Positions 10,056 to 43,060 of a stretch of DNA of 64,000 nt are shown here, piece by piece. Every line of letters starts with the position of its first letter. Position 1 is the stretch's first letter. Under the pieces are notes generated by a model. The model was not told the DNA's origin and searched no databases. It saw nothing but the letters and a program-made list of their open reading frames with translations. The translations under genes and the position numbers were made by a program. Source of the stretch: a virus; the IMG/VR virus record IMGVR_UViG_3300025626_002025; one strand, given 5' to 3'.

Positions 10056-10080
10056 TTAATGTCTTTTCCCATTTATTTTA

Positions 10081-10088: not shown

Positions 10089-10160
10089 TACCCTATCTAT
10101 GCTTTTCTGTTTATTGATAGTATAACTTCACTTATATAAGTATAAGAAATTAAAAAGTAT

Positions 10161-10193
10161 AAAAAAATCCCACACCTTTTGAGTGTGGGATTT
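10161..10193 (-). terminator. Rho-independent terminator
   Basis: 11-bp stem aaatcccacac/gtgtgggattt followed by a T-run on the minus strand, just downstream of the 637-aa gene. Confidence 0.85.
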
Positions 10194-10221
10194 GTAATTA
10201 AATCAATATTAGTACAAATTA

Positions 10222-12135: not shown

Positions 12136-12229
12136 TGTTTTTTTTTCCTTTTGTTATATTAATTAATAAATGTTAACCTTTATTTTTTCGGGTCATTTGC
12201 CCTAGTTGCAACTATATAGTTTACCTTAC

Positions 12230-12237
12230 TATAAATA
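12230..12237 (-). promoter_or_regulatory. Putative late promoter TATTTATA
   Basis: Intergenic octamer upstream of the start at 12135. Confidence 0.6.
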
Positions 12238-12247
12238 GAAGATTTAA

Positions 12248-12838: not shown

Positions 12839-12874
12839 TTTTATTTTCCTTTATATTAAATATATTATTTTTCA

Positions 12875-15800
12875 TTATACCCCTCCACTTCCACTTACCG
12901 CATTTAATCCTAAATTAAAATTAGTTGAACTCGCAACTTGGTTTGTTGCACCAACTACATACCAATTGGTATATCCAAGGTGTGCAGTTGCTAGTGTTAC
13001 TTGATTAATTTCTGATGATTCTAATGTGTTTGAACCATCAATTGTTGTTCCATCAGTTCCAACTTCTAAAACATATTGTCCATTGGTAGAACCACCATAT
13101 GAATCGGTTGTAGTTGTTGGAATTCCACCCATATCACTTGTAGATGGGAATATTATAATAAAATGATTACTATTACTTCTACTTATTACACCACTAGTTC
13201 CCATTGCTCTTAATACATCATGTACATTTGCTCCTGTCCCTTCTGCTAGTTTAGATGCAGTTTGTGTACCACCAAATGAATAGGTAAATGAACTATCACC
13301 TAGTACATCATCATTTATTATTTGGTCAATAAATCCAATATCACTATATGGTGTTGCTACTGGTGGAGTTGAACCATCTTCACTACTAATACCAATTGAA
13401 GTATTATATGTTGAGTTGTTATATCCACTATCGTACACATAAACCTTTCCGTAATCTGCAGATGTTGCAACTGTGAAACTTCTACTATTATAATCGGTAC
13501 TCTTACCAAAGTTATCAGTTACTCTTACATTATAATTGTAAGTTGCAGCTGATAAATTACCAGATGCTTGTATTCCAACCGAAGAAGAGTTTGCATTTGT
13601 GTACACCAATTGTAATGAACTTGCATCCGTACCACTTAGTGATGCTGAGAATGGAGTATCTGATTCTGTATCAGAAATACTCATACTAACCATAGTAGTA
13701 CCAGTTGTTGCATTATCGGTTTCAAAGTTTGAAGTTTGATTTGTAAATGTAGCAGTTGGTGCTAGATTAGCAAATACATTCGCAGTTACAGTTCCACTTC
13801 CAGCATTACCATATTGGTCTTGGAATCCGATTGTTGAAACAATATCATCACCACTTGAAGTAGTTGAACCACTAATATCCAATGCAAGTGATAATTGTCC
13901 ACTTGTATTTATTGATATTGCCGGATTTGATGAAGTCCATGATGAACCTTGTACTGCTTGTGAACCATAGTTTGGTGAATAAGATACACTCATTTGTGAT
14001 TGGTTACCTGCACCAAATCCACTTGCATCTCTAATTGCTTCTCCATTTTCTCCTGATTCTATGATGTAAGAAGTTGTATCTCCACCAAGTGTACCATCAT
14101 TCGCTGATGCGATTGTTATTGTTTTACTACTATATGTTGTTGATTTATCATAGTTATCAGTAACTTTAAGATTGTAATTTAAAGTTCCAGCAGATAAATC
14201 TTCATTTGCTCTTATATAAACAGAAGATGAATTAGAGTTTTGATAATCTAAATTAAGTTTAGATGCATCCGTTCCACTCAATGAAGCAGAATATGGTGTA
14301 TCCCCTTCTGTATCTGTAATTCCTACAAGAACTAAGTTTGTATTTGTTGTTGCTAAATTAGCATTTAAGTTTGATGTTTGATTTGTAAATGTTGCAGTTG
14401 GTGCAGCATTTTCTAAAATAGTTACACTTAAACTATCAGTAGTTTGAGTACCGAATGTATTTGTAAATGTAATTGTTGATGTTAATGAATCTCCACTTTG
14501 TTTAGCAGAACCACTTATATCAAATCCTATTGATAAATTACCATTTGAATTTATTGCAATTTCTGAATTAGATGATGCCCATGTACCACTTTGATTTGAA
14601 TTGTAATCTGCTTGTGTTGAACCATAATTTGTTGTCTTTATAGTTGTACCACTTTGTTCTGATTCTTTTATATAAGGACCAGCAGACCAATTATCTGATA
14701 TAGTTGCTGCAATATCATCTGAAACTGGTACACTAACAACTGAAGCTGATGAGATTGTTTCATTAAACGTATCTCGTATTGTTACTCTATATTGATATTG
14801 GTTAATTAAATCAGAATTTAAATGAACTCCTGTTTTTCTTGTTACATTACCACTTGAATCCATGTTGAATGGATTTTCATGTGGGTCAGTTGCTTGTGAT
14901 GTTCCACCATATGAACCACTAGCTACAACTGAACCATCTAGTATTAGTTTATGTAAATTAAAAGATACAAATGATATTGAATCACTTTCATTATCAGTTG
15001 CAGATATATTACCAGCTGATGCTCCATTTGATGAATTTTCATTTAGTCCAGTTACTTGTTGATTACTTAACGTTGGTGCTAAGTTATCAGTTACATTTAT
15101 GGTAATTGGTAAGAAAGTTCTTGAATCGGAATCTTCACCACTTTCATAATGTGCATCCGAAGCAGTTATACTAAATGTATAAGTTGTTTGTTGTTCATAA
15201 TCTAATGAACCAGTATTTTGTCTAATATCAACATAAGTTGAATATTTTGTTATATCGAAATGATTATTATCAATCGATGATGAGGTGATAGTGATTGCAT
15301 CACCTTCCGTATCTGTAAAGAATACTCTTTTTACCAAAGTATTATTTGTAGAGTTTTCATTTAAGTTAGAAGTTACAGAAGTAATAATATTTCCACCAGT
15401 TGAACCTTCTCTAAACTTAGGTGATTCATTTGGTGTTACAAATATCGTAATATCCTTTTCAACAATCGCATTAAATGTATCTGTTGCAGTTGCAGTAAAT
15501 GTATGTCCATGTACTCCACCTACTGAATCAGTATTGAATGATGATGATACTGCTAAAGCATTTAAAGTTAGAACACCATTTGATGCTACTCTAACTAAAT
15601 CATCAGTATAAGATGAAGCAGTTCCGAATGTGAGTGATTGTCCTTCAGCATCTGTTCCTGCAATAGTTACAATTGTTGAACCATTTGATGTATATTCTTC
15701 TATTGTTTGATTACCTGTTGTTATAGTTGGAGTAGTGTTAGGGAAGAATACTTTAGTTATAAATTCTTCAACTGAACCACTTGTACCAAAGTTATTGTTA

Positions 15801-17893
15801 TAAACACCACTTGGTAAATCTGTATTGGATACTACTCTATTTCCATTATATGTTAATTGAGCCGAACTACTTACTATTCCACTACCATCGGTAACTTGAG
15901 ATGAACCACTAATTACACTAGTTCCATCGAGTGTTCTCAATACTGAACCACTAACTACATCAGTTCCATCTAAATTTCTTAATACACTTCCACTAACAAT
16001 ATTACTACCATCTGTAATTTGAGTTGAACCACTAATAACCCCACCAGGCAATTGTGATACAATTGAACCACTCAAAACAGTAGTTCCGTCTAAGGTTCTA
16101 AGTACTGAACCACTAACAACCCCAGTCCCATCTAAGTTTCTAAGTACACTTCCACTAACTACATTCGTTCCACCCAAACTTCTCAATACTGAACCACTTA
16201 CGATTCCACTACCATCAGTTATCTGAGCTGAACTACTAACTATATTTGTTCCATCAAAAGTTCTAATAACAGAACCACTTATAACACCAGTTCCATCTAA
16301 ATTTCTTAATACACTTCCACTAACTACACCATCTCCACTTGAATTAATATACCTTGTATCAAATTCGGTAGTTAATTGTGCTGATGAAGAAACTGTTCCT
16401 GCTGGAATTGAACCACCACCACTTGGTAATGTAATTGAATTACCACTTGATATTGTAAGTTCATTACCATCAATTGATAATGTTTGAGAATCCGTTTCAG
16501 ATGTTAAGTAAGATGAGGTTGCAGCTGATAATGCATCTACTTCAGTTTGTATTGATGAGGTAAATGTGTTAAGTATCGATATATCAGTTTTAGAACCACT
16601 TAAAACGTTAGTTCCATCAAGAGTTCTGATTACAGAACCACTTACAAGATTACTACCATCTGTTATTTGAGATGAACCACTAATTACACCGCTTGGTAAC
16701 GAACTAATAACTTGAGTAGAACCACTAATTGTTCCTGCGGGTACTGAACCCCCACCTCCACTTGGTAATGTAATTGTATTACCAGTTGATATCGTTAATT
16801 GGTCTCCACTTATAGAAAGTGTCTGAGAATCCGTTTCAGATGTTAAATAAGAACCTGTTGCTGCTTCAATACTCGCTAATCTACTATCGGCTGATGATGT
16901 GTATGTGTTTAATGATGATATATCGGTTTTTGAACCACTTAATATACCCGTCCCATCAAATGTTCTAATAACAGAACCACTAACTACATCAGTACCATCA
17001 AGAGTTCTTAATACTGAACCACTAATTACATCAGTTCCATCTAAAGTTCTTAATACTGAACCACTTATTACTCCACTACCATCTAAAGTTCTTAATACTG
17101 AACCACTTATTACTCCTGTTCCATCAAGTGTTGTTAAAACACTTCCACTAACTACACCAGTTCCATCCAAGGTTCTTAATACTGAACCACTTATAATTCC
17201 ACTTGGTTTATTTATAAGATTTGAGTAATCTAATGAACCTACGAATGAAGTTGCAGTAATAGAACCAGTTACATCTAAATCTGCACTTACTTTATACTTA
17301 CCATCTTCAGTAGTCCATATAGAAGAACCTCCACCTCCACCACCTCCTCCGAGGGATGATAGGTCAATAGTATTTCCTTCTGATATGGTTAATTCTTTAG
17401 AAGCTTGATTAAATGTAAGAGTTTGGTCATCTGTATCGGTGATATTTCCGATTGATGTAGCAATTGATGAACTAAACGCAGAGAATCCACTTGTTTGAGT
17501 TATGGAAACTTGAGAAGAACCACTAACATTTCCACTTGGTAAATAATTTAATATTGAGCCACTTAAAACACTAGTTCCATCTAAATTCCTTAATACAGAA
17601 CCACTAATTACACCTGTTCCGTCTAAAGTTCTTAGTACAGAACCACTTACGATATTACTACCATCTGTAATTTGTGTTGAACCACTTATTATAGTTGGTA
17701 ATGATACGAGTGAACTAAATGGTATATTAGTAAGTGAGTTTCCATCTCCTTGAAATGAACCAGTAAATGAACCACTAACACCAGATGCTTCAGATAGGTT
17801 AACTAACCCACCACCTGCTACTGTAAAATCTCCTTCGATTACCGATGCAGTTACTACACCTTGTATCTGTTTACTTTGAATTAATGTTGCCAT
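12875..17893 (-). CDS. Large virion adhesin-like protein: SGS-repeat stalk plus cadherin-like/Ig domains (1672 aa)
   Basis: N-terminal half has 14-aa VxSGSVLRTLDGT repeats. C-terminal half has cadherin motifs (NESPKF, LNENS, TDTEGD, LDYEQQTTYTFSITASD). Confidence 0.75.
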   Translation of the reverse strand: MATLIQSKQIQGVVTASVIEGDFTVAGGGLVNLSEASGVSGSFTGSFQGDGNSLTNIPFSSLVSLPTIISGSTQITDGSNIVSGSVLRTLDGTGVISGSVLRNLDGTSVLSGSILNYLPSGNVSGSSQVSITQTSGFSAFSSSIATSIGNITDTDDQTLTFNQASKELTISEGNTIDLSSLGGGGGGGGSSIWTTEDGKYKVSADLDVTGSITATSFVGSLDYSNLINKPSGIISGSVLRTLDGTGVVSGSVLTTLDGTGVISGSVLRTLDGSGVISGSVLRTLDGTDVISGSVLRTLDGTDVVSGSVIRTFDGTGILSGSKTDISSLNTYTSSADSRLASIEAATGSYLTSETDSQTLSISGDQLTISTGNTITLPSGGGGSVPAGTISGSTQVISSLPSGVISGSSQITDGSNLVSGSVIRTLDGTNVLSGSKTDISILNTFTSSIQTEVDALSAATSSYLTSETDSQTLSIDGNELTISSGNSITLPSGGGSIPAGTVSSSAQLTTEFDTRYINSSGDGVVSGSVLRNLDGTGVISGSVIRTFDGTNIVSSSAQITDGSGIVSGSVLRSLGGTNVVSGSVLRNLDGTGVVSGSVLRTLDGTTVLSGSIVSQLPGGVISGSTQITDGSNIVSGSVLRNLDGTDVVSGSVLRTLDGTSVISGSSQVTDGSGIVSSSAQLTYNGNRVVSNTDLPSGVYNNNFGTSGSVEEFITKVFFPNTTPTITTGNQTIEEYTSNGSTIVTIAGTDAEGQSLTFGTASSYTDDLVRVASNGVLTLNALAVSSSFNTDSVGGVHGHTFTATATDTFNAIVEKDITIFVTPNESPKFREGSTGGNIITSVTSNLNENSTNNTLVKRVFFTDTEGDAITITSSSIDNNHFDITKYSTYVDIRQNTGSLDYEQQTTYTFSITASDAHYESGEDSDSRTFLPITINVTDNLAPTLSNQQVTGLNENSSNGASAGNISATDNESDSISFVSFNLHKLILDGSVVASGSYGGTSQATDPHENPFNMDSSGNVTRKTGVHLNSDLINQYQYRVTIRDTFNETISSASVVSVPVSDDIAATISDNWSAGPYIKESEQSGTTIKTTNYGSTQADYNSNQSGTWASSNSEIAINSNGNLSIGFDISGSAKQSGDSLTSTITFTNTFGTQTTDSLSVTILENAAPTATFTNQTSNLNANLATTNTNLVLVGITDTEGDTPYSASLSGTDASKLNLDYQNSNSSSVYIRANEDLSAGTLNYNLKVTDNYDKSTTYSSKTITIASANDGTLGGDTTSYIIESGENGEAIRDASGFGAGNQSQMSVSYSPNYGSQAVQGSSWTSSNPAISINTSGQLSLALDISGSTTSSGDDIVSTIGFQDQYGNAGSGTVTANVFANLAPTATFTNQTSNFETDNATTGTTMVSMSISDTESDTPFSASLSGTDASSLQLVYTNANSSSVGIQASGNLSAATYNYNVRVTDNFGKSTDYNSRSFTVATSADYGKVYVYDSGYNNSTYNTSIGISSEDGSTPPVATPYSDIGFIDQIINDDVLGDSSFTYSFGGTQTASKLAEGTGANVHDVLRAMGTSGVISRSNSNHFIIIFPSTSDMGGIPTTTTDSYGGSTNGQYVLEVGTDGTTIDGSNTLESSEINQVTLATAHLGYTNWYVVGATNQVASSTNFNLGLNAVSGSGGV
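16932..17201 (-). repeat. 42-bp (14-aa) coding tandem repeat, about 6 contiguous copies with more dispersed at 15.9-17.7 kb
   Basis: Repeated GVISGSVLRTLDGT units; DNA gttcttaatactgaaccact recurs. Confidence 0.9.
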
Positions 17894-24909: not shown

Positions 24910-25254
24910 TTAAGAACCTTTACCAGTTCCTGATTTTCTTCCTTTTGTGTGCGTAGAAACGTTTATAGGTTTTTTACCTTGTCCTGCTGATTGAGAACCA
25001 CCACGATTAGATTTGTTCTGTGCTGCTCTTTTTCTACGAGTTGCAGATTCTTTTTCTTTTTTACTCATGGATTTAGCTTTAGAAGCAGGAACACATTTAG
25101 CATATCCTTTCTTCTCACCACTTGTACCACATGGAGGATGTTTACCACTTTTATCTTTCTTACCGATATTAACCCATTTAGATTTAAACCAGTTACGAAG
25201 GTCTTCGTTGGTTGTTTCTTCGAATATCTCATCTATGATATTTTGAAGTTTCAT
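24910..25254 (-). CDS. Basic Cys-containing putative internal head protein
   Basis: Acidic leader ending TTNE, then LRNWFKSKWVNI...CG...KCVP, a motif recognised from large-virus hypothetical proteins. Confidence 0.55.
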   Translation of the reverse strand: MKLQNIIDEIFEETTNEDLRNWFKSKWVNIGKKDKSGKHPPCGTSGEKKGYAKCVPASKAKSMSKKEKESATRRKRAAQNKSNRGGSQSAGQGKKPINVSTHTKGRKSGTGKGS

Positions 25255-26672
25255 TACTTACCTAATTGGAATAATTTTTCTTCAACAGCTGCATTAGTTC
25301 TGTAATCGTAATGTTTTGGATTTACTCCAAAATCTTTTAGGGATTTTTCTAACCAAATTCTATATTTGTTTTTTCCATACTTTTTTTCCATTACAGAAAG
25401 TACATCATAAAACTTAGTTTCTTTATTACCTACTTTTTTTACTAATCCTTTTATTTCGGATTTATCTTCTACCATTGGATTATATCCTTGTGGTACTCCA
25501 TCTCCTTTACCTTCAGCAAATTTCATCAATCCTCTTACTCTTTTTATTAATGTACCTGCAGGAATCCCATAGGTATCACTCATTACATCTTGAGTAAACT
25601 TGTTTGATAGGAAGTTAGATAATTCTTTTTTAGTTGCAATACCACTCTTAAAATCATCTCTTGCAATCTTATCTAATTCTTTAGCATCTATCTTACCTTT
25701 GAAATATGCAGTAAGTGCATCTGCTTTGTAGTTGTATTTTGCTTCGTTTACTGATTCACCGAATCCATAAACATATCCACCTTTGTGTAAAGTGTTAACA
25801 AACTTTGCTAAATCTTTTTTGTTTTTGAAAGTTTGGATATCAAAGAAATCACTACCATCTTTATGTTTCTTTTTACCATCGTGATAAGAGATTGTGTATT
25901 TTGCTGAACCAACTCTATCTTGTTGGTAGTATCTTTTTTTACCTTCGTTTACTGATTCATTTTTAAATGGATTAAATAAACCTCGTTTACTTACTTCCTT
26001 CTCAGTAGATGGTGCAACCTTTGCCTTAGTTTGATGTTTGAATTTAATTGGATTATATTTTTCCAACTTATCAACATCCACATTTCCATCAGCATCAGTT
26101 TTAACTTCACCATACTTATCATCACCCATTCTTACGATACCAACAGTTTTAGTTCTTTTGTTATAAACTAAATCATCTACTTTGAACTTACCTTCGTTTA
26201 CTGATTCGTTCTTAGAAACCAATTCATCTACATCTTTATGAACATCTTTATAGTTGTTAAATTTTTGTTTACGAATTGCACTATACAAGGCGATTGTATA
26301 TTTTTGTGAGTTGTTGTGGATTCTTCTTTTAATAAATTCTGCAGGTTTTTGTTTTAGATTTGGTTTAGTACTCATTTCTAATGCATTTACCATTGATGAG
26401 AATTCTTGAAATGATTCAAATGATTTTCTTTTATTACCATCTGAAATGAACTCCTCTATATACGATATAGCCGAATCCATGTTTCCTTTATGTGCATCAA
26501 GTAATTTCTGTGCACCTTTATCATTTTTTTCTAAAGCTCTTTTGAAGTTTCCAATTTGAGTTTTAGCTAATCCTTTATTATTAAAGTAATCTCTTTTATC
26601 GAAAATAGCATATACTTTTTCGAATTCTTTGTTTGGAGATTTGAATCTTTCGTTGATTAACATTTCTTCCAT
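25254..26672 (-). CDS. Multi-cassette putative internal head polyprotein (probable start 26663, MLINE)
   Basis: Unrelated ~65-150-aa segments separated by three ESVNE motifs. GGAGG precedes the second ATG. Confidence 0.65.
   Translation of the reverse strand: MEEMLINERFKSPNKEFEKVYAIFDKRDYFNNKGLAKTQIGNFKRALEKNDKGAQKLLDAHKGNMDSAISYIEEFISDGNKRKSFESFQEFSSMVNALEMSTKPNLKQKPAEFIKRRIHNNSQKYTIALYSAIRKQKFNNYKDVHKDVDELVSKNESVNEGKFKVDDLVYNKRTKTVGIVRMGDDKYGEVKTDADGNVDVDKLEKYNPIKFKHQTKAKVAPSTEKEVSKRGLFNPFKNESVNEGKKRYYQQDRVGSAKYTISYHDGKKKHKDGSDFFDIQTFKNKKDLAKFVNTLHKGGYVYGFGESVNEAKYNYKADALTAYFKGKIDAKELDKIARDDFKSGIATKKELSNFLSNKFTQDVMSDTYGIPAGTLIKRVRGLMKFAEGKGDGVPQGYNPMVEDKSEIKGLVKKVGNKETKFYDVLSVMEKKYGKNKYRIWLEKSLKDFGVNPKHYDYRTNAAVEEKLFQLGK
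25742..26207. repeat. Three identical 16-bp direct repeats cttcgtttactgattc (encode ESVNE)
   Basis: Copies at 25742-25757, 25943-25958 and 26192-26207. The last two share 20 bp. Confidence 0.9.
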
Positions 26673-27409
26673 CCTCCACCTGCTGCTTTATATTTCTTAG
26701 CTGCCCAACCATTAGCATATGCTGATGGGTAAACATCAAATTTCTTTTTTGCTTGTGATTTGTAAGAACTCCATTTACTGGCATCAGTAGGACAATTTTC
26801 CTCCATTAGAGTTTCAACCTTTTGGCCAAACTCATATAATGCAGTTTCTTGTTCGTTTAAATCAGTTACTTCTTTTATTGTAGTAGTGATAGAACCATCA
26901 TCGTTTCTCATTGATATAGATACAGGTTCTTCGTTTAAAGATTCGTTACATCCACCTTCAGTTGTTCCATTACAACCACAACCACAATCTTCTTTAGATT
27001 CGTTCATTCCTAAACGTTCTTTCATTTGGTCTTCTGTAATTTCTCCTATTTTGTAGTATCTTGAAAGAATATGTCCCATATCTTCATATAATCCACCCAT
27101 TCTTTGGTCAAGTGCCTTAGCTTCAAGAGCAACTTTATCGAATTGTTTACCCAACTTATCCAATTCACTCATGTTTCTTTTAATCGTGTGTTTATCAAAC
27201 CAATCATCACCTTCGTGAATTGCTAATGTTCTAGCTGCTTCTGTAATACCACCAAGTGTTTCTGCCACTTGAGTAATATCAGATTTTCTATCCATTGATT
27301 CTTGATATTTGTTGTAAGTAGAAACGATTTCTAAGAAGTGTTTTTTAACTTCTAAAGAAAGAGGTCTCTTTTCTTCTGATTCGTTTATTAGTTGGGTTAA
27401 TTTAATCAT
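26657..27409 (-). CDS. Putative internal head protein (MIKLTQLINE leader; C-terminal VYPSAYANGW basic domain)
   Basis: Leader plus internal MNE, LNE and LME sites, a helical domain and a small basic domain. Confidence 0.6.
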   Translation of the reverse strand: MIKLTQLINESEEKRPLSLEVKKHFLEIVSTYNKYQESMDRKSDITQVAETLGGITEAARTLAIHEGDDWFDKHTIKRNMSELDKLGKQFDKVALEAKALDQRMGGLYEDMGHILSRYYKIGEITEDQMKERLGMNESKEDCGCGCNGTTEGGCNESLNEEPVSISMRNDDGSITTTIKEVTDLNEQETALYEFGQKVETLMEENCPTDASKWSSYKSQAKKKFDVYPSAYANGWAAKKYKAAGGGWKKC

Positions 27410-27421
27410 TGGATTCTCCTA

Positions 27422-27655
27422 TTATTTAATTCTTTTTAATATTTTATGAAGATATTGCAATCTATCAATAGCATCTTTACAATGGTCCATTGCTTCTAGT
27501 ATTGCACTTTCATCAATCATTTCTTCAATAAGTTCAATATCATTCTGAACTGCTCCAACTGTACCCTTTACAACTTTAACAAGTTTCTTATCAGGTTGTT
27601 TATATGGTGCTTCATTCATTGAACTTTCGTTCATTAGTTGAGCTAATTTAATCAT
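27422..27655 (-). CDS. Small putative internal head protein (MIKLAQLMNE leader)
   Basis: Same leader as its neighbours; strong TAAGGAG upstream. Confidence 0.6.
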   Translation of the reverse strand: MIKLAQLMNESSMNEAPYKQPDKKLVKVVKGTVGAVQNDIELIEEMIDESAILEAMDHCKDAIDRLQYLHKILKRIK

Positions 27656-27665
27656 TGTACTCTCC

Positions 27666-29036
27666 TTAAAATAATTTTTTTAGTTTACTATCTTTGTAAG
27701 TATCAGCGTAATACCACTTCTTATCTTTCATATTGTATAAATATACAAATTCTGCTCCACCACTTCTATCGGCATCTTTTATATATGATTCAATATCTTT
27801 GGAATCACCTTTCATTGGTTGACCATTTTTGTAATATTCAATATCCTTATCATCAAAGATTCCTCTTGCTCCACCCATCTTGATTAGTTTAAGAACATCT
27901 TTATCACTTTTCATGTGATGTTTTAAACCTGGTTTCATATTTGATGGATAACCATCGTAGTGAACGTATGCAGAAATAATCTTACCATTTCTACCAATTA
28001 CACCAACTTGAGAACGAGTTCCTTCGTTGATTACAACTGATTCAGGTATCATATCTGCAATAGATGTTGTTGATTCATTCTTCTCATCAAAGATTGATTG
28101 TATTTTTGCTGCTAATTTATGTGAACCATTCATTTTTAAATCGAATGCAATTGCATCGATTGATTCTTGTCCATCCCAAGATGATTCTCCAGTTGCTGAA
28201 TGAGCGATATCATCAGTACCATCACTTGAATCACCAAATGATGAACCCCATGCAGTACCTTTTTTCCATTCATCATATTCATCTGAGAACATATCTTTTG
28301 GTTTGTTTGGGTCATTTGAAGGATTCTTAGCAAGTTCAGGATTATCTTCTAAAACTGCAATAAGAGCTCTTGATTCAGAATGAAAGTTTGCATCTGTTAA
28401 AGCTTCAACAGCTGCTTGGGACATTCTTTTTTCGTATTCTTCTTTACCTAACTTCTGTGGAGTAACTCCTAAACTCTTTGCTTTGTTACGAACAACTTTG
28501 TTTACTTGAGGATTACCAGGTCTTGGTTTAGATGGTTCTGATTTAGGTTCTTCTCCTTTAGGTTCTTCTTTTGGAGAATCTAAAGTCATTTTCTTATCAA
28601 ATAAATCTTTTAAATCTGCCCTTACATCCGCACTTCTTTCAAAATCATCCCCTGCCGCATCAATATCATCTACTAATGATTTTGCAATTTCCAAATCTCT
28701 TCCTTTAAGATATGGGAATATATCTGATTCTGCATAATCTTGTATTTCATCACCAGGCATATCACCAATATTATTTTGAACATCCTCTATCTGTGCATCG
28801 GTGTTATCATCTCTCTTAGGTTCATCTTTCTTAGGTTTATCAAAGATATTAACTTTAGGAGTATCTTTTTTAGAATCATCACCTTTAGAATCGTTATCAT
28901 CTTTTTTATCATGAGTACCTGCTTTTACTGCAGAATCTCTTGCATCTTTAGATTTAAATACAGAAACCGCACCACTATCTTTATTGATTGCTGTGTATGT
29001 TTCTTCTTCGTTTAAAAGGTCAGTCAATTTAATCAT
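27666..29036 (-). CDS. Putative internal head polyprotein (MIKLTDLLNE leader; C-terminal GTRS...HYDGYP domain)
   Basis: Leader, a module shared with the 1980-aa protein, and an INE|GTRS junction. Confidence 0.65.
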   Translation of the reverse strand: MIKLTDLLNEEETYTAINKDSGAVSVFKSKDARDSAVKAGTHDKKDDNDSKGDDSKKDTPKVNIFDKPKKDEPKRDDNTDAQIEDVQNNIGDMPGDEIQDYAESDIFPYLKGRDLEIAKSLVDDIDAAGDDFERSADVRADLKDLFDKKMTLDSPKEEPKGEEPKSEPSKPRPGNPQVNKVVRNKAKSLGVTPQKLGKEEYEKRMSQAAVEALTDANFHSESRALIAVLEDNPELAKNPSNDPNKPKDMFSDEYDEWKKGTAWGSSFGDSSDGTDDIAHSATGESSWDGQESIDAIAFDLKMNGSHKLAAKIQSIFDEKNESTTSIADMIPESVVINEGTRSQVGVIGRNGKIISAYVHYDGYPSNMKPGLKHHMKSDKDVLKLIKMGGARGIFDDKDIEYYKNGQPMKGDSKDIESYIKDADRSGGAEFVYLYNMKDKKWYYADTYKDSKLKKLF

Positions 29037-29224: not shown

Positions 29225-29818
29225 TTAAGTTATTTCTGTTATAATTTCTCTCATCAAATCTTGTGATTTACACCACTCGTTACAAACTTCACCTTGTTTT
29301 ACTAGTTGTTTGTTAACAGATTCGTTCATCGGAGTCATAAATGCTCCATGTGTTGATGGATTAGAAACAAAATCCCAACCAATCAATTCAAAATCTTCAC
29401 CTACTTGAACTTTACCACCTGATAGAGGTTCTACTGAACCCATACCTCTTGATGATATTCCTAAAAGGATTCCTGCTTTAAGTAGTTCTTTTAAGATGTT
29501 ACCACTTGGAGTTGGTAGTATCTCAACGGTTCCTACTAAATCATCGTTATCCCAATGTATCTCTCTTACGTTATGAGATACGTTCTTTAGGTTGATTACA
29601 GAAGAATCTGGATGGTCTAATTCACCAAGTGCTCTTCTTTCTTTAATAAGTGTTTCGTATTTTTTAGCTTCTCTCATCAAAATTTGTTTTGGATATATTC
29701 TTCCATTTTGATTTTCAGCACCTGCTCGTTGTAAAATACCTTTAACGATAGTTCTTCCACTTTCGTCTTCGTTTACTTTACCTTCGAATAGTTTTGTTTC
29801 TATTAATAAATTTCCCAT
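29225..29818 (-). CDS. gp21: Prohead core protease (T4 gp21-like)
   Basis: NQNGRIYP, ALGELDHP, VSH, TPSGNILK, GISSRGMGS and DFVSNPST motifs. Start placed at the ATG at 29818 (TAATG coupling) rather than the TTG at 29830. Confidence 0.95.
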   Translation of the reverse strand: MGNLLIETKLFEGKVNEDESGRTIVKGILQRAGAENQNGRIYPKQILMREAKKYETLIKERRALGELDHPDSSVINLKNVSHNVREIHWDNDDLVGTVEILPTPSGNILKELLKAGILLGISSRGMGSVEPLSGGKVQVGEDFELIGWDFVSNPSTHGAFMTPMNESVNKQLVKQGEVCNEWCKSQDLMREIITEIT

Positions 29819-29994
29819 TATGCTCCCCAAGTTTTTCTTCGTTTAAATAAATCAAAAAAGATTGCTGATACTTCCTGTCTGATGATTTTTCTTATTAAAT
29901 CTTTATCAGACTCGTTGAGTTTCTCGTTAAGTTCTCCTTTTTTAAAACTAACGATTTCTTCATTGATTATATCATATAATTCTTTTTTAGTCAT
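29818..29994 (-). CDS. Small protein (58 aa) missed by ORF track
   Basis: MTKKELYDIINEEIVSFKKGELNEKLNESDKDLIRKIIRQEVSAIFFDLFKRRKTWGA*. TAGGA upstream; stop overlaps the protease ATG. Confidence 0.75.
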   Translation of the reverse strand: MTKKELYDIINEEIVSFKKGELNEKLNESDKDLIRKIIRQEVSAIFFDLFKRRKTWGA

Positions 29995-33665: not shown

Positions 33666-34058
33666 TTACCACTTTCTACAAGACCAGTATCTTGCTTTAT
33701 GTCTTGGACCGGGTGAATCACAATTGTGTCTAGCTCTGAATGCTTTTCTTGCATCTGGATTATTCTTTCGAATAGACATTGTTTTTTCTCCTGATTTCTT
33801 TGCTGAACTACCACCATGTCCAAAATTAACTTTTACAACATTACCTTGAGGGTTTTTAACATATACTTTAAATTTTTTCACATCACCTTGCATTGGTTTT
33901 CCAAGTTTAACTTTTCTACCTTGATACTCAGCTTCATTTATGTCAGATTTATATTCTTTCATGAACTTCGAAAATTCTTGTATATCATCATAGTTTTCTA
34001 CTATGTACTCATTACAGTAGTTTTCGTTTTCATTTATTAAATCTATCATTGAAATCAT
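33666..34058 (-). CDS. Basic Cys/His putative internal head protein (MISMIDLINE leader)
   Basis: INE|AEYQGRKV...KKFKVYVK...VNFG...RKAFRARHNC...ARYWSC, a motif recognised from large-virus hypotheticals. Confidence 0.65.
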   Translation of the reverse strand: MISMIDLINENENYCNEYIVENYDDIQEFSKFMKEYKSDINEAEYQGRKVKLGKPMQGDVKKFKVYVKNPQGNVVKVNFGHGGSSAKKSGEKTMSIRKNNPDARKAFRARHNCDSPGPRHKARYWSCRKW

Positions 34059-37073: not shown

Positions 37074-40000
37074 TTAGAAGAAAATACCGAGTATCTGATT
37101 TACGGATGCGAATGTACCTGTAAGTTTAAAAGTATTTCCTTTATATAAGAATACAATACCTTCATTTGGTACAATTTTCTTAGAACCACCAATAGATTGT
37201 AATCTACCAAGTTCCAATTTAAGTTTTTCTATCTTTTTTGGGTCACCTGATTTCCTAACATCTTTAATTGTCTTATCAATTCGTTTTTTCATATCACGAA
37301 CTGCTGAATCAGCGTTAACTGTTAGTGCAGATGAGGTAAACTCTAACACTTCTGCACCCAAACCTAAGAATATTTGTTCAAACTTCATTAAGTTCTTCTT
37401 ACCAATCTTCTTTTGGTCTTCTTTATCTGTTTTTTTAGCCCACTCTAATGTTTTTTCATCACTAAAGTTCTTTTTATCTAATCTAAATCCTTTATCCATG
37501 AACGCCCATCTCTTAACTAACCCCATTTTGGTTTTGTTATCAAGTGATGTAGGTGAATTCTTATCAACCCATTGTGACCACCACCCTTGGTGATAATCAG
37601 CAACACCATCAGTATCCTTTAAACTAAATTCTTTTTGTAATTTAGATATCTGTGATGAGTATTTACTACGTTTCTTAGATAAATCTTGTGATTTTGGTAA
37701 TTTTACAATAGGAGGTCCTTGAATAGTGTAATTATCTTGTACATCTTTGTTAACTTGTTTAATCATACCAGCTAATACTCTTGCTGATTCACCATTCTCT
37801 CCGATTGCAACACCATCCATGTTGAATTCCATAGTACCATGGAACACAAGTAACGCTTGACCATAAGGAATAACGTTTACTGATGTTGGGTATATCACTT
37901 CAAGGTTCATAAAACACGCACCTTGTTTAAATACCTTATCTCTTTGTTTATCCGATAACGATTTAATAGCATTTGAAAGGTCTTTCATTGCATAATTGTA
38001 AGCATCACTCAATCCACCTCTACCTTGGAACTTATCTGATACACCTTTGATATCTAAAGCATTCTCACCTCTGTTCTTTAGGTGGCCTTTGTTCCTCGCT
38101 GCTACTAACCTACCATCTCTCCATGAAATAGCTAATGCTTGACCATCTGTTTTCTCTCGTGTGAACTCAAGTGTACCTTCGAGTGCACGATTTACGATAT
38201 CTTTAAGTTGTCCAAAGGTTAAATTGATATCAGTATCAAATGGATGAGACATATGTCCATACGCACCACCTTCTTGGAGTAAGTTAGATTCGTTTATGTT
38301 TTCTTTGATTAGTTGTTGTGGTGTTTTAGTGTTTGGTAAAAACATTTCAACTAACTTATTATCGATATCACTTATTATCTGTTCTATACTATCCATATTT
38401 TTACTTTCTTTATTTTCACCCAAACCACCTTTATCGTGTTTAGAGAATTTACCTAATTTATCAAATGCTCTGAATGATTTTAATTTATCTTGCTTTGCAG
38501 GTCTCATATCAGATAGTTGTTTGTATCTCATGTGGTTTTTAACAATGTAAAATACATTTGCAGCATTACCATCAACTGATTCTATAAACTTTTTATACTT
38601 CTTTACTAATGAAGCAGATACTTTTTCATGTCCAAAGTGTGTGATGTGTCCTTTCTTTGGGTGAATACCCGCAGTTTCATCTTTTCCTATATCGTGAAAC
38701 ATTGCTGCTATTGCAATATCAATATCATCCTCTTTGATTGAACGATTCACAACCATAATAGTATGTTTAAGAACATTACCCTCTGGGTGTTTATCTACTC
38801 TTTGACCAAAGTTCTTTAGATTGTAAACTCTCTTTTGTAAATCAGAAGGCATCTTTTTGAATAATGATTTGAAATCTTTTATTCCTAATTCTTTTAATCC
38901 TTCTTTAACTGGTTTTGCTTTTAGAAATGCTTGGTCTACAACATCTTCATTCTTTTTTTCGAATTTTTCAACTTCCTTTGCTCGTAATGCTGGTAAGAAT
39001 CTGAATTTAGCTCTTTTTCTAACTCTACCTTTTTTTCTCACCACATTCTTATGAATTACCTGAGTTTGTGCAATCGATAAATCTGCTTTCTTAATACCAG
39101 GATATAATTCTTCCATGAACTCAGCGTAAACTTGTCTGTATGCCATCTTGTAAGCAATCTTCTTAAGTTTAGAAAGAGGTTTTCTTCTTTTCATCGTTCT
39201 TGCTCTTCTTCTTGCGATTTCCTTACTCTTTCCTGCCATTGCTGCTTTTCTTCTTAATCTATCAGCAGGTCTCATCTTACCTCGTTCATCCAAATCTTCG
39301 GATTCTATTGTGTATTTTGCATCAGATGATTTAAAATCATTTTTTCTCATTATGGTTTTAGCGATTAGTTTATTCGCTTGTTTCATAAATGGAATATTAA
39401 GGTTTGTTCTATTATCCTTTACTACAATTTGATTATATTGATTAAGAAATTTTACAAAATCTTTTTTCTTTTTTCCTAATCTTTTAAAGAATCCAATTAA
39501 TTCGGCTTGTGATATTTCCTTTCCGTTTCTTGGGTCATTTAACCTATCGAAGAAATGTTTTCCTGTAAGAACTGTATCTACCGGATTTAATTGTTTATCT
39601 GCAAACTTATCAATCTTTTGTAAGTCAGACATTGGCATCTCATTTAAGAAATTTTCTCTTTCTTTATTTTTTATCCACAATCCAATTTCTGCACCTTTGA
39701 TATCAGAGGGTACATCGTTTCCACCAACTGATAATTTAAAACTTACAAACTTCTTCATATCCTTTCCAATCGATTTACCAAAATCTACTATTTGGTTATC
39801 AGAAAGTGAAGTTTTTTGTTGTAGTTTTTTATAAACACCAACTTCTTCTGGTTTAAAATATTGTAATGATACTAAAAATACAATATCATTCTTTTCAGTA
39901 TTTGTATATGATAACTTATTTAATAGTTTTCCTAATAACGCTGGAGAATTCTTTTTTAGAAGTACTGATAGGAATACAATATAATCAGTAGTTTTAATAT

Positions 40001-43000
40001 ATGGTTTATTTATTTTAAGATTTGGTAAAATTTGAGAAGTGAATCCAATTTTATCACACAACTCCATATACTTCTTTGTATCCTTTGATGTTTTAAGTGA
40101 TTTTACAAATTCATCTCTAATTCTTTCAGCTGGAAGTGATTTTAGTGATGGGTCTTTTTGTAACGCATCTAATAACTCCTTATCTAAACTACCACCCATT
40201 CTTGATTGAAATCTTAAAGCTCTTAATTTTCTTAATGGGTCTTCATCAAATCTCTCAACAGCATTTCCAACTGTTCTAATGTTTTTCTTTTTAAGGTCTG
40301 CAATTCCACCAACTAAATCAACTATTTCTTTTCTTTCAATATCATAGAATAAAGCATTTATAGTTAAATCTCTTCGTTTTACATCTCCTTCAATATCTGT
40401 ATATTCTACTGAATCAGGTCTTCTACCCTTTCCAATATCCTTTCTAAATGTTGCAACTTCATGTCCACCAACGATTACAATTCCCAATCCCATTCCAGTA
40501 CCCACATCTTGTGATGTTTTGAAACCACCATCTTTACCAATCTTCATTGTTTCTTCTGGTTTAGCATCAGTTGCCAAATCAAAATCTTTTGGGGATTTAC
40601 CTAAAATAGCATCTCTAACTGCCCCACCTACTATATAAAGCTTTTTACCGTTTTTTTTAAATTGCTTTTGTAGTTTAACAATATCCGATGGTACTTTTAG
40701 TTTAAAATTTTTAGATTCATTTAAACCCATTTTTTCTTTCCATGAATCAAATGCATCGAAATCATATTCTTGTTTCTGAGAATCCCATCCACATGAATGA
40801 CATAAATATTTTTCACTATCATCAGATTCAATATCCCATGAGTGATTGCATTTTTCACATTTAATGTTTGTTCCTGCGATTTCGTTAACAGATTCTTCTT
40901 CTGATTGAGTAAACTTAATAAGAGCAGTTGATAGTATTTCATTAGATACTTCAACGTTTTCTAATTCTTTTATTATCAATTCAGAAAATTTATTTAAATC
41001 CGCCTCTAGTTCTTGGTCTTCATCTGCAAATATAGCAGCTCTACCTACTCCTTTTAATATTGTTTCAATAGCAACATGAGGTACAAGTTCTGCCATTGTC
41101 AATCCAGCAAGTTTTGCAACTCCAGTAACCGTTCCGGCAACTCCACCACTGGCAGCAAATGCTCCTGTGATTAAAATACTCTTTCCTACTAACTTTAGAG
41201 CTTTCTTTTGGTCATCCTCTAACTCTTTATATTTTTTACCACTACCAAGTTCTTTTAATGCACCACCTGCTTTTTTAAATTCATGATACTCGTGTTTAAG
41301 ACCATCTTTAATTGCCTTTCCAGCACCTTTAGTTTTATCTTTTAGTTTATCAATAAAACTTCGTTTTACTGCATCTGGATTTTTTACTACATCACTAAAG
41401 TATTTCTTTTCTTCGGATTTTAACTTTGGAAAATATTCTTTAATTTTCTTTTTAGTATTATCTCTTCTCTTTTTTATGATATCACTAGGAGAAACAACAT
41501 TAGTTGGTATATCTATCTTAATATCAGTTGCAAATCCATCCTTATCAGTATTTGCATCTTTTTTTGCAGGGTCATTATCTGGTAAACTATCTCTAAAAGA
41601 ATCCCCATCCTTTCCCTTAAAAATTCCTTTACTATCTTTTTTATCAGAATCATCAGAGTCCGTATTATCTGATGATTTTTCATGAGTACCTGATTTTATA
41701 GCACCATCTCTCGCATCCTTTGTTTTGAATACAGATGTTTTTCCTGATTTCTTGTTTGTAGCAGTGAACGTTTCATCATCTTCAAGTATAGAATATAATC
41801 CTTCTTGTACAATTCTAAAGGTAACCACTTTTCTACCATTGATTGTTGGCATTCCATGTTCATCTTTACCGATTGTTTTAACAACTGTTTTCTTATTCTT
41901 AAATCTACCAGTCATAATGGTATCTCCAACTTTAATTGGTAGTACTATATTTTCATTTAAAGATGCTTCGTATTCTTCTTGTGATTTCTTATCACCTTTT
42001 TGAGAATCTAATGATGCATCTTTGATATCCTTATTGGTATCTAATCCTTTTACTAATTCATACCCAACCATTGATGCTTTACGAGTTACGTGCTTAAACC
42101 ATTTAGAATAAGCATCACTTGAATAGATATCAACTTGGTTAGCGGCAGTTTGTGTACCAAGTACACCTGCTGGAAATGGGGTTACTGCTTTAACAGGTCC
42201 ATTTGGATATGTTGGATGGTCATAAAAATCTTCAATATCTCTAGTAGTAATCATATCAATTACCTCATAACCGATTCGTGTTGCTCTATCTACATTTATT
42301 TTAGAGAACACATCATAGTTAGGAAAAAAGAAATTTGGTCCATCATCTGCTTGACCACTTCCCATCTTAGAACTTTCGTTTAACAACCACTCCTCAATCA
42401 TCTCTTTAGAAATTTCAATTCCCTCATCGAGTTTATCAGTAATCATACTAAAGATAGTTGCATTAAACTTTCCGTAGGCTCTTTTCTTAAAGAAGTTCTT
42501 TTTCTGTTCATCAGAACCAACTGATAAACCATTTCTTACTTCCGTACCACTTACAGAATTACCAGACATTGGAGCTGCGTAAACATATCCTCTATCTCTA
42601 TATCCTTCTGATGGGTCTCCTTTGTATGGTTGAAAGTATTTACCACCTAATCGGTTTTTATCTTTCTCACCAACAACAGTTACAAATGCAGTTGTTTCTT
42701 CATCAAACTTTTTAAGAATTTCTGTGGGTTTGTATGGATTTTTAACTCTATGTATTTTGGATTTTGGAATTCCAAACATAGTAGTCATAATTTTTACCTT
42801 TTCTTTGAAGTTAAAAGGTGATTTAGGTAATTGTACCTTATCAGATGTACCTACATACACATTATCTTTACCAAACTTTTTTACAAGGTGCTGGTAAGTT
42901 CCATAGTGTCCTTTATGCATAGGTTGAAACCTACCCACATAGATAACTACTGTTTTTTTAATAGGATTTTCATCCCCCATTATACTCTCTACGAGAAATT

Positions 43001-43016
43001 TGGAAAGTTCATTCAT
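37074..43016 (-). CDS. 1980-aa polyprotein: HxGH nucleotidyltransferase, unknown modules, Zn ribbon, CCA-adding-type NTase, basic domain, HD hydrolase, RNA-ligase-like domain
   Basis: GRFQPMHKGH...SGTEVR; CEKC..CHSC; GGAVRD/DFD/RRDLTINA/EDPLR; HPEGNVLKHT/FHDIGK/GHE/NHM; EKTDG/NLE/VFH/EGIV/FK. Confidence 0.85.
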   Translation of the reverse strand: MNELSKFLVESIMGDENPIKKTVVIYVGRFQPMHKGHYGTYQHLVKKFGKDNVYVGTSDKVQLPKSPFNFKEKVKIMTTMFGIPKSKIHRVKNPYKPTEILKKFDEETTAFVTVVGEKDKNRLGGKYFQPYKGDPSEGYRDRGYVYAAPMSGNSVSGTEVRNGLSVGSDEQKKNFFKKRAYGKFNATIFSMITDKLDEGIEISKEMIEEWLLNESSKMGSGQADDGPNFFFPNYDVFSKINVDRATRIGYEVIDMITTRDIEDFYDHPTYPNGPVKAVTPFPAGVLGTQTAANQVDIYSSDAYSKWFKHVTRKASMVGYELVKGLDTNKDIKDASLDSQKGDKKSQEEYEASLNENIVLPIKVGDTIMTGRFKNKKTVVKTIGKDEHGMPTINGRKVVTFRIVQEGLYSILEDDETFTATNKKSGKTSVFKTKDARDGAIKSGTHEKSSDNTDSDDSDKKDSKGIFKGKDGDSFRDSLPDNDPAKKDANTDKDGFATDIKIDIPTNVVSPSDIIKKRRDNTKKKIKEYFPKLKSEEKKYFSDVVKNPDAVKRSFIDKLKDKTKGAGKAIKDGLKHEYHEFKKAGGALKELGSGKKYKELEDDQKKALKLVGKSILITGAFAASGGVAGTVTGVAKLAGLTMAELVPHVAIETILKGVGRAAIFADEDQELEADLNKFSELIIKELENVEVSNEILSTALIKFTQSEEESVNEIAGTNIKCEKCNHSWDIESDDSEKYLCHSCGWDSQKQEYDFDAFDSWKEKMGLNESKNFKLKVPSDIVKLQKQFKKNGKKLYIVGGAVRDAILGKSPKDFDLATDAKPEETMKIGKDGGFKTSQDVGTGMGLGIVIVGGHEVATFRKDIGKGRRPDSVEYTDIEGDVKRRDLTINALFYDIERKEIVDLVGGIADLKKKNIRTVGNAVERFDEDPLRKLRALRFQSRMGGSLDKELLDALQKDPSLKSLPAERIRDEFVKSLKTSKDTKKYMELCDKIGFTSQILPNLKINKPYIKTTDYIVFLSVLLKKNSPALLGKLLNKLSYTNTEKNDIVFLVSLQYFKPEEVGVYKKLQQKTSLSDNQIVDFGKSIGKDMKKFVSFKLSVGGNDVPSDIKGAEIGLWIKNKERENFLNEMPMSDLQKIDKFADKQLNPVDTVLTGKHFFDRLNDPRNGKEISQAELIGFFKRLGKKKKDFVKFLNQYNQIVVKDNRTNLNIPFMKQANKLIAKTIMRKNDFKSSDAKYTIESEDLDERGKMRPADRLRRKAAMAGKSKEIARRRARTMKRRKPLSKLKKIAYKMAYRQVYAEFMEELYPGIKKADLSIAQTQVIHKNVVRKKGRVRKRAKFRFLPALRAKEVEKFEKKNEDVVDQAFLKAKPVKEGLKELGIKDFKSLFKKMPSDLQKRVYNLKNFGQRVDKHPEGNVLKHTIMVVNRSIKEDDIDIAIAAMFHDIGKDETAGIHPKKGHITHFGHEKVSASLVKKYKKFIESVDGNAANVFYIVKNHMRYKQLSDMRPAKQDKLKSFRAFDKLGKFSKHDKGGLGENKESKNMDSIEQIISDIDNKLVEMFLPNTKTPQQLIKENINESNLLQEGGAYGHMSHPFDTDINLTFGQLKDIVNRALEGTLEFTREKTDGQALAISWRDGRLVAARNKGHLKNRGENALDIKGVSDKFQGRGGLSDAYNYAMKDLSNAIKSLSDKQRDKVFKQGACFMNLEVIYPTSVNVIPYGQALLVFHGTMEFNMDGVAIGENGESARVLAGMIKQVNKDVQDNYTIQGPPIVKLPKSQDLSKKRSKYSSQISKLQKEFSLKDTDGVADYHQGWWSQWVDKNSPTSLDNKTKMGLVKRWAFMDKGFRLDKKNFSDEKTLEWAKKTDKEDQKKIGKKNLMKFEQIFLGLGAEVLEFTSSALTVNADSAVRDMKKRIDKTIKDVRKSGDPKKIEKLKLELGRLQSIGGSKKIVPNEGIVFLYKGNTFKLTGTFASVNQILGIFF

Positions 43017-43037: not shown

Positions 43038-43045
43038 TATAAATA
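43038..43045 (-). promoter_or_regulatory. Putative late promoter TATTTATA
   Basis: Intergenic octamer directly upstream of the polyprotein gene. Confidence 0.6.
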
Positions 43046-43060
43046 TGGAAGAAAAAATAA

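Follow-up and report, generated by a model that had tools for sequence, protein, structure and literature searches.

For proteins that phages inject against host defences, the main examples are a handful of small T4 proteins and the predicted 'polyvalent' proteins; phage RNA repair, as by T4 Pnkp and Rnl1, is regarded as made after infection. The T4 internal head proteins (IPI, IPII, IPIII and Alt) carry a leader of about ten residues that ends in hydrophobic-x-Glu, with variable cargo behind the conserved leader, and are presumed to be ejected with the DNA. They enter the head via this capsid-targeting sequence (CTS) (PMC5694885, PMC3012670), and the T4 prohead protease gp21 cuts on the C-terminal side of Glu, in Alt for instance at ITE-6 and LTE-619 (PMC3012670; PMC5694885). 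Polyvalent proteins (Iyer et al. 2017, PMC5512222) join unrelated enzyme domains, are encoded beside virion genes, are predicted to be injected and are rapidly shuffled. Here we analyze a 64,000-nucleotide stretch of the IMG/VR virus record IMGVR_UViG_3300025626_002025, referred to as the window, in which one very long open reading frame (ORF), P0001, has features of both systems. Our best explanation as a whole, held with about as much confidence as doubt, is that this gene specifies a polyprotein built of cassettes, that it belongs to an uncultured marine phage of T4-like type (gp23 capsid, gp21-type protease, gp20-type portal), and that it supplies a capsid-delivered, protease-cut set of RNA-end repair enzymes together with an NMNAT-like enzyme.

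Like the T4 internal proteins, the window protein is accompanied by a gp23-type capsid protein, an S77 protease and a portal, and it starts with a leader of the same type. Unlike them, it strings many modules into one 225-kDa precursor with internal cut sites, for which [LIV]-N-E is preferred, and in place of restriction inhibitors and an ADP-ribosyltransferase the cargo would consist of predicted RNA and nucleotide enzymes. With the polyvalent proteins it shares the joining of unrelated enzyme domains in a single phage chain, a gene that neighbours virion genes, predicted injection and rapid shuffling. Polyvalent proteins, which are rare in T4-like phages, are presumed to be cut by embedded zincin-like peptidases, whereas here the prohead protease would act in trans; a Pfam search of the window protein found no peptidase domain, although an embedded zincin-like one is a common, if not obligatory, polyvalent theme, and a SprT-like domain occurs in one of 33 long relatives. 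In the polyvalent-protein study, RNA ligases were never seen with the 2H phosphoesterase domains of these proteins (PMC5512222).

Three further systems bear on the enzymatic modules. The multifunctional CCA enzyme of E. coli has the same class II head and neck (GGxVRD, DxD, RRD, EDxxR) paired with an HDIG domain, but in the window protein the nucleotidyltransferase (NTase) and HD modules lie about 250 residues apart, with other modules and predicted cut sites between them, and their order is reversible in relatives. T4 Pnkp with Rnl1, bacterial Pnkp/Hen1 and fungal Trl1 combine an RNA-ligase-fold enzyme with end healing, and relatives of the window protein add a Pnk-type kinase; unlike in those systems, the ligase-like domain here stands outside the Rnl families, contains an insert of about 220 residues and has no accessory domain, the window protein has no kinase, and the candidate phosphoesterase is an HD domain instead of a HAD, calcineurin-type or 2H enzyme. 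Finally, 'Cytidyltransferase-like' proteins of uncultured Caudovirales and T4-like cyanophages (S-PM2 A0A0M6VVW4) likewise join an HxGH NTase to the C-terminal fold (BFVD matches from E 2.6e-49 to 8e-4, and atlas clusters with the same two-part architecture), but those of cyanophages are related to the window family at the fold level only, and the cytidyltransferase gene that could be placed in S-PM2 sits among replication genes. From the T4 internal proteins and the polyvalent proteins, the window protein is set apart by its multi-cassette precursor apparently cut by a prohead protease, its RNA-repair-type enzymes and the apparently undescribed ligase-like family.

In the mechanism that we propose, the polyprotein would be made together with the head proteins, and its ten-residue CTS-like leader would take it into the prohead core. 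There the prohead protease would cut after Glu at E10, E214, E355, E412, E712, E767, E1126, E1244, E1372, E1534 and E1576, and the released pieces would remain in the head until they enter the cell along with the DNA. Most likely they would serve to repair, early in infection, RNA ends that host nucleases have damaged: 2',3'-cyclic or 3'-phosphate ends would be removed by the HD enzyme, CCA would be restored by the NTase, breaks with a 5'-phosphate would be sealed by the ligase-like enzyme, and the NMNAT-like enzyme would restore NAD+ or work with the ligase-like domain.

A preliminary description of this DNA had covered positions 37074-40715 and had read a CCA-type NTase, an HD hydrolase and an RNA-ligase-like domain with a KxDG motif as one late-expressed protein, an injectable tRNA repair kit. 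All three elements are indeed present in one ORF, at scores well above chance, and the interval belongs to the same gene, but it comprises only residues 768-1980, the last 61% of the ORF. The first 767 residues are part of the same protein and change the reading of the gene: they begin with an NMNAT-like domain, overlooked at the time, and it is this domain, not CCA or HD, that is the constant partner of the ligase-like domain. 'One protein' likewise applies to the ORF, while its products are probably a set of cleaved enzymes, judging from the junctions described below. Identical or near-identical proteins were found on metagenome contigs of up to 203 kb; near-identical DNA was absent from the GenBank phage set, and the gene is missing from the nearest virus record, a 59-kb fragment. 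The modules are listed in the table.

Table. Features of the polyprotein gene and associated elements; positions refer to the window. pLDDT, predicted local distance difference test.
Feature	Residues	Position	Strand	Basis or remarks
Whole ORF P0001, predicted modular polyprotein	1-1980	37074..43016	minus	1980 residues plus stop, uninterrupted
Leader MNELSKFLVE, capsid-targeting-sequence-like	1-10	42987..43016	minus	resembles T4 leader; kept in relatives
NadM/NMNAT-like HxGH nucleotidyltransferase	11-214	42375..42986	minus	motifs, Pfam, AlphaFold2, Foldseek
Module U1, conserved DDGP motif	215-355	41952..42374	minus	202/287 relatives match; low AlphaFold2 confidence
Small beta module	356-412	41781..41951	minus	AlphaFold2 four strands, pLDDT ~75; 175 relatives
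Rare insert	413-712	40881..41780	minus	41-residue tag, D/K-rich linker, K-rich helices, Gly/Ala-rich hydrophobic segment (~611-660)
Cys4 zinc-ribbon module	713-767	40716..40880	minus	CEKC 720, CHSC 739
Class II CCA-type tRNA nucleotidyltransferase module	768-1126	39639..40715	minus	Pfam, PHROG, NCBIfam, PDB match, motifs
Module U2, phrog_14518-like	1127-1244	39285..39638	minus	PHROG E 4.8e-4; 62 relatives
Arg/Lys-rich module	1245-1372	38901..39284	minus	read from sequence; 120 relatives
HDIG-type HD phosphohydrolase module	1373-1534	38415..38900	minus	Pfam, NCBIfam, PDB match, motifs
Spacer, ends INE	1535-1576	38289..38414	minus	AlphaFold2 pLDDT <50 at 1563-1586 (model residues 1-24)
RNA-ligase-like covalent nucleotidyltransferase domain	1577-1980	37077..38288	minus	AlphaFold2 model, fold searches, motifs
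Promoter-like motif ATATTTATA		43038..43046	minus	22 nt upstream of ATG
Prohead protease, Peptidase_S77 (T4 gp21 type), presumed processing enzyme		29225..29830	minus	Pfam E 4.3e-27; PHROG 207

Packaging and cleavage are suggested by the leader and by the borders of the modules. T4 IPII and IPIII begin with MKTYQEFIAE, which ends in hydrophobic-x-Glu as the window leader does. The tripeptide [LIV]NE occurs six times in the window protein against 1.24 expected (p 0.002), and all six occurrences lie at module borders (E214, E355, E712, E767, E1126 and E1576); further hydrophobic-x-Glu sites are found at E10, E412, E1244, E1372 and E1534. Among the relatives, hydrophobic-x-Glu immediately precedes the start of the zinc ribbon in 119 of 121, of the beta module in 159 of 173, of U1 in 104 of 156 and of U2 in 42 of 62 cases, as compared to 0.31% at internal control positions, and the junction triplet is kept within many differing upstream contexts (e.g. 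KEGFIAE). A site no more than 10 residues upstream of the ligase-like domain was observed in 73 of 112 representatives (15.4 expected), and the modelled cut sites all fall in stretches with an AlphaFold2 pLDDT below 50. Moreover, where the NMNAT-like and ligase-like domains are encoded by split genes, each has its own leader of 9-10 residues ending in hydrophobic-x-Glu (MNFKEYLRE and MGFKKFYINE). The 41-residue tag that follows the ILE412 site shares 61% identity (E 9e-13) with a block, residues 4-44, that sits right behind the leader in a 456-residue head-module protein; the gene of this protein adjoins that of the protease. The window also encodes a Gp23 capsid protein (Pfam E 9.8e-77), and the portal and large terminase are encoded just downstream of the polyprotein gene. 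The cultured Microcystis phage Mel-JY01, which carries a related gene, has an S77 protease as well, and there too the gene lies a few genes upstream of the terminase.

Two sets of observations concern the head genes themselves. Four head-module proteins of 472, 250, 456 and 130 residues (25254-29036 and 33666-34058, minus strand) have leaders of 8-10 residues ending in [LI]NE (MIKLTQLINE, MIKLTDLLNE, MISMIDLINE and MEEMLINE) and are enriched in [LIV]NE; by these features they look like the phage's set of internal head proteins, and the 472-residue protein, with three ESVNE repeats (E160, E243, E310), may itself be a small polyprotein. The listed start of the S77 ORF is a TTG codon, and an in-frame Met four codons further on gives a leader-like MGNLLIE; close to its C-terminus, at residue 170, there is a PMNE, as would be expected if it cleaves itself there in the way reported for related prohead proteases.

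The same junctions would have to be linker or recombination signatures if the gene product is not packaged at all but is a cytoplasmic multi-enzyme, whether produced only late or all through infection and whether a single long chain or a set of domains with loose links, that keeps up the tRNA pool (CCA turnover, healing, sealing) and NAD+. We regard this as unlikely, although a number of points speak for it and weigh against packaged delivery. Phage CCA enzymes, RNA ligases and NMNATs normally act inside the cell (stand-alone annotated tRNA nucleotidyltransferases; PMC7824862), and the S-PM2 cytidyltransferase gene belongs to a replication module. Virion proteomes of T4-like cyanophages often contain 'cytidyltransferases', a point in favour of packaging, but abundant enzymes may co-purify with virions, a caution given by the authors themselves (PMC10665884). 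The leader of the window protein ends in LVE and not LNE, conserved junction motifs could indeed be linker or recombination signatures, and packaging, cleavage and all activities are predictions from sequence and fold. An unpackaged enzyme leaves unexplained, however, why split genes each start with a 9-10-residue leader, why the junction tripeptide is exact in dozens of contexts and so rare at internal positions, and why four proteins beside the prohead protease have the same leader, with the 41-residue block common to one of them. Pre-loading in the virion, as first proposed, thus receives real if indirect and unexpected support, from the CTS-like leader, the protease-type sites at every module border and the gp21-type protease.

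At its N-terminus, the window protein carries the motifs GRFQPMHKGH (28-37) and SGTEVR (156-161). Pfam CTP_transf_like matches the domain with 22.9 bits (cut-off 21) and NCBIfam NadM models reach E 3e-6, while the best NMNAT models, at 26 bits, remain far under their equivalog cut-offs of 127-449. The AlphaFold2 model has a pLDDT of 85-97 over most of residues 21-196, and its best Foldseek matches are an archaeal NMNAT (1m8k, E 1.2e-5) and a NadM-Nudix protein (2r5w, E 1.4e-5). By motifs, fold and profile we assign the domain to the NadM-type HxGH superfamily, below the equivalog-level score of a true NMNAT.

This domain and the ligase-like domain belong together. The Mel-JY01 protein WWT39297, a 639-residue 'cytidylyltransferase like protein' in which the first His of HxGH is not kept, aligns to residues 20-207 and 1561-1979 of the window protein with nothing in between; GRFQP is carried by most of 150 family representatives; and on one contig (L008) the two domains are encoded by separate, abutting genes. 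From this fusion, the representatives and the gene pair, it follows that the conserved core is NMNAT-like plus ligase-like, and the window protein reads in alignment as this core with about 1350 residues inserted at the linker. Such a constant pair could also be one two-step enzyme with CCA, HD and the rest as passengers, in which either NAD+ serves as the AMP donor of the ligase-like domain and is remade from NMN and ATP by the NMNAT-like domain, or the HxGH domain pre-adenylylates RNA 5'-phosphates. The direct fusion in Mel-JY01, the adjacent genes on L008 and the presence of both domains in most of the representatives are in line with this idea, and the bond that an NMNAT makes when it transfers an adenylyl group to a 5'-phosphate is the one formed in step 2 of a ligase reaction. 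Yet stand-alone ligase-like proteins exist, some of them with a separate NMNAT-like neighbour gene, a cut at E214 would make two separate proteins, and we know of no RNA ligase that uses NAD+; we consider a two-step enzyme improbable. A complex prediction for the NMNAT-like (11-214) and ligase-like (1563-1980) parts gave an ipSAE of 0.00 in two runs without controls, which speaks neither for nor against binding.

In the C-terminal domain, all covalent-NTase motifs noted earlier are present: EKTDG (motif I, 1621-1625), NLE (III, 1704-1706), VFHG (IIIa, 1724-1727), EGIVF (IV, 1952-1956) and FKLTG (V, 1963-1967). In an alignment of 19 sequences, namely the window domain and 18 short relatives with 39-67% identity to it, motif I keeps its K, D and G without exception, and an Arg 19 positions further on and the E of NLE (E1706) are likewise invariant, as are H1726 of VFHG, E1952-G1953 of EGIVF and K1964 of FKLTG. 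K1622 is the candidate nucleotidyl-accepting Lys; in an hhalign comparison of the family with T4 Rnl2 only motif I aligns, weakly (E 0.1), with K1622 opposite the catalytic K35. The AlphaFold2 model of the domain (pLDDT 88.7, predicted template modelling score 0.83) matches only RNA/DNA ligases and capping enzymes, with moderate scores. Against the PDB, the first 30 rows listed by Foldseek were all RNA or DNA ligases. VIA-align, which is independent of Foldseek, ranked T. brucei REL1 first (Z 8.5, 193 residues), followed by Naegleria NgrRnl (8.1), T4 Rnl2 (7.8), fungal Trl1 (7.8) and T4 Rnl1 (7.5); the RNA-ligase group spans Z 8.5-7.1 over 180-204 residues, DNA ligases and capping enzymes score Z 5-6.5, and every non-helical, domain-spanning match (Z 8.5-4.8, residues 17-418) is an RNA/DNA ligase or a capping enzyme. 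In BFVD, the matches below the family's own members are mostly viral RNA ligases, and in every fold search RNA ligases outrank DNA ligases and capping enzymes. Between motifs IIIa and IV lies a helical insert of about 220 residues, and there is no separate N- or C-terminal accessory domain. We conclude from model and motifs that the domain is most probably a covalent nucleotidyltransferase nearest to RNA ligases, and by sequence comparison it belongs to none of the described Rnl families (Rnl1, Rnl2/REL, Rnl3, Trl1, Rnl5).

A stretch of the helical insert (window 37400-37800, roughly residues 1765-1875) gave a match of the family profile to the C-terminal region of plant ribosomal protein eS6 (8ip8, 4v7e; E 4e-5). 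This is probably a compositional similarity of Lys-rich sequence, but the helices at this place could instead be ones that bind RNA.

Searched against 1.84 billion cluster representatives, the ligase-like domain had 1765 relatives at E <=0.001, 557 of them at E <=1e-30, where the figure of about 1765 counts clusters at 50% identity. The domain is nearly always C-terminal, in proteins of about 400-1930 residues. Only three of 50,697 GenBank phage records contain it, whereas metagenomes, marine ones among them, are rich in close relatives, the largest contigs measuring about 275 kb. Pfam at E <=10, applied to the C-terminal domain and five stand-alone relatives, returned nothing, DUF6267 included, and phmmer and profile searches of the domain against PDB sequences returned no ligase; the atlas lists DUF6267 on 12-44% of the members of some related clusters. 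Literature searches, which did not cover Burroughs and Aravind 2016, returned no account of DUF6267, of Mel-JY01, of an NMNAT-RNA ligase fusion or of a polyprotein system like the present one. On these profiles and alignments, the relatives form an unannotated phage family with an NMNAT-like/ligase-like core.

Two modules of the middle part would act on RNA ends. For the NTase, the class II signature reported before is fully in place, with GGAVRD (797-802), DFD (811-813), RRD (881-883) and EDPLR (925-929) and matches to the Pfam PolyA_pol head domain (793-914, E 2.3e-29, 102.8 bits, cut-off 23), the Pfam RNA-binding domain (946-1000) and PHROG 2244 'tRNA nucleotidyltransferase' (E 2.3e-60). 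Among solved structures it is closest to CCA-adding enzymes of bacteria (6ibp, E 1.5e-32; 1miv), which rank above the poly(A) polymerase of E. coli, and NCBIfam 'multifunctional CCA addition/repair protein' matches with E 3.4e-30, below its cut-off. The HD module matches Pfam HD at 1424-1523 (E 1.6e-7, 32 bits, cut-off 22) and NCBIfam HDIG (E 2.9e-5, 23.8 bits, under the 27.6 cut-off), and carries HPEGN at 1410 and FHDIGK at 1440, in keeping with an H...HD metal-binding motif. Among solved structures, its one relative by sequence (E 5e-4) is the HD portion of 3wfo-3wfs, chains that bear the deposition name 'Poly A polymerase' and that we take to be the CC-adding enzyme of Aquifex aeolicus; the proposed resemblance to the HD type fused to CCA enzymes is borne out in so far as this relative comes from a class II tRNA nucleotidyltransferase, and it is also the one indirect hint of a 2',3'-cyclic phosphodiesterase or phosphatase activity on RNA ends. 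No phage tRNA gene, whose product the NTase might mature, was found in the 64 kb.

A relative of 1312 residues (P0003), 94% identical in the ligase-like domain, has two PolyA_pol head domains with an HD domain between them, a double head that could represent a split CC-adding and A-adding arrangement.

To survey the cassettes, twelve protein segments were compared by BLAST with 287 relatives. Middle modules are gained, lost and reordered even where two proteins have ends with more than 90% identity: one (P0153) equals the window protein minus residues 413-712, an insert that is missing from other close relatives too, and another (P0166) has the order zinc ribbon, basic, HD, CCA, ligase. Additional cassettes in relatives comprise an AAA_33/Pnk-type P-loop kinase, GNAT acetyltransferases, DUF5661, an intein, and SprT-like and ROS/MucR domains. 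CCA and HD are both optional cassettes, which a minority of the relatives carry. Kinase domains occur in 3 of 33 long relatives, one of which (P0033) has the order NMNAT-like, DUF5661, AAA_33 kinase (with weak Pnkp and PSTK matches), HD, CCA and ligase-like. With a predicted kinase, phosphoesterase, ligase and CCA enzyme, this full set is the best contextual support for RNA repair. The RNA-repair theme of the preliminary description is upheld, relatives placing an AAA_33/Pnk-type kinase beside HD, CCA and ligase-like modules; the window protein itself has no 5'-kinase and hence does not encode the full healing and sealing of anticodon breaks. Among the remaining modules, U1 comes next after the NMNAT-like domain in some 70% of those relatives that were examined, its D224-D225-G226-P227 is nearly invariant, and it may be a third core component. 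The Arg/Lys-rich module possibly binds nucleic acid, judging by its composition; an atlas search with U2 (residues 1127-1250) gave no informative match.

Further points weigh against an RNA-end repair set delivered by the capsid. A motif search found no P-loop in the window protein and thus no 5'-kinase, so that breaks with a 5'-OH would not be sealable without another enzyme. The ligase-like domain has invariant residues of the candidate motifs III, IIIa, IV and V in the correct order, but motif V holds one invariant Lys and not the usual KxK; its fold scores are moderate (Foldseek E 0.04 at best; Z of at most 8.5, 'middling' by the tool's own scale), and no ligase model in Pfam, NCBIfam or PHROG matches it. 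The sole cyanophage relative, in S-PM2, is seen at the fold level only, the family profile finding nothing there. For the NTase, the NCBIfam CCA model PRK13299 (170.4 bits, cut-off 290) and the pcnB model (168.1 bits, cut-off 305.65) score alike, with only head and neck aligning, so that CCA-adding and poly(A) polymerase specificity cannot be told apart by sequence models.

Several of these points would also fit a packaged protein that is polyvalent cargo and not a repair kit, its modules acting independently on different targets. Defences that deplete NAD+ would then be met by the NMNAT-like enzyme, host RNAs would be tailed or marked by the NTase for faster decay, as by a poly(A) polymerase, and the ligase-like enzyme would adenylylate or join another substrate, such as DNA nicks, RNA 5' ends or protein. 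The very varied cassettes of the relatives, including GNAT, SprT-like and ROS/MucR, agree with this as they do with the published polyvalent proteins (PMC5512222), and so do the indistinct NTase models, the missing kinase, the atypical motif V and the fold matches to DNA ligases and capping enzymes. On the other side stand the first rank of RNA ligases in every fold search, the solved relative of the HD module in a class II tRNA nucleotidyltransferase chain, and the joint occurrence of kinase, HD, CCA and ligase-like modules in P0033. In addition, the bacterial poly(A) polymerase signature, which we take to be of GRRFRL type, is by eye lacking in the window protein. We consider independent cargo rather doubtful and keep to the repair set as the favoured reading.

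With regard to timing, the motif ATATTTATA upstream of the giant gene has 13 matches between window positions 6176 and 43046, all on the coding strand, versus 5.2 expected, and none of 100 shuffles reached 13. Most matches lie 20-50 nt upstream of structural genes (10081, 21475, 31869, 34077, 37041, 43038), so that the giant gene has the motif in common with a number of genes for heads and tails. As a candidate late promoter it is unlike the TATAAATA of T4, and its distribution is consistent with co-expression of the giant gene with the structural module. Late expression, as claimed before, is plausible from the shared ATATTTATA and from the location beside terminase, portal and protease. The T4 late promoter, TATAAATA, was itself considered and was not enriched (16 matches versus 14.9 expected); ATATTTATA is its near-complement.

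Directly upstream of the polyprotein gene lies a nucleotide-sugar gene cluster (43206-63861, minus strand) with epimerases, an RmlC-like cupin, an aminotransferase and phrog_34187 halves around an epimerase. In relatives (Mel-JY01 and the P0115 contigs), a glycosyl/methyltransferase protein of 1200-1500 residues occupies the corresponding upstream position, and the synteny of sugar and glycosyl genes may therefore be conserved. Downstream of the head genes, three very large ORFs (>1996, 1353 and 1672 residues; 3-17893, minus strand) presumably encode tail-fibre or baseplate proteins.

Beyond this one phage, it is possible, though we would put it only tentatively, that a widespread but so far undescribed strategy of T4-like phages of aquatic bacteria is at work, in which a single leader would bring a hypervariable cassette polyprotein into the head, cuts at [LIV]-x-E would release enzymes in stoichiometric amounts, these would be ejected so as to mend RNA and replenish NAD+ before phage expression begins, and the core would act as a coupled pair. 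Independently of packaging, the large unannotated ligase-fold family with its unusual layout may be a new family of RNA ligases and might be of use as an enzyme reagent, and the cultured carrier Microcystis phage Mel-JY01 makes the hypothesis directly testable. If the favoured reading is true, RNA-end repair and NAD-related enzymes would arrive ready-made in the infected cell, the phage could survive tRNA-cutting or NAD-depleting defences that act before phage translation, and the prohead protease would double as the polyprotein processor for a rapidly shuffling cassette array.

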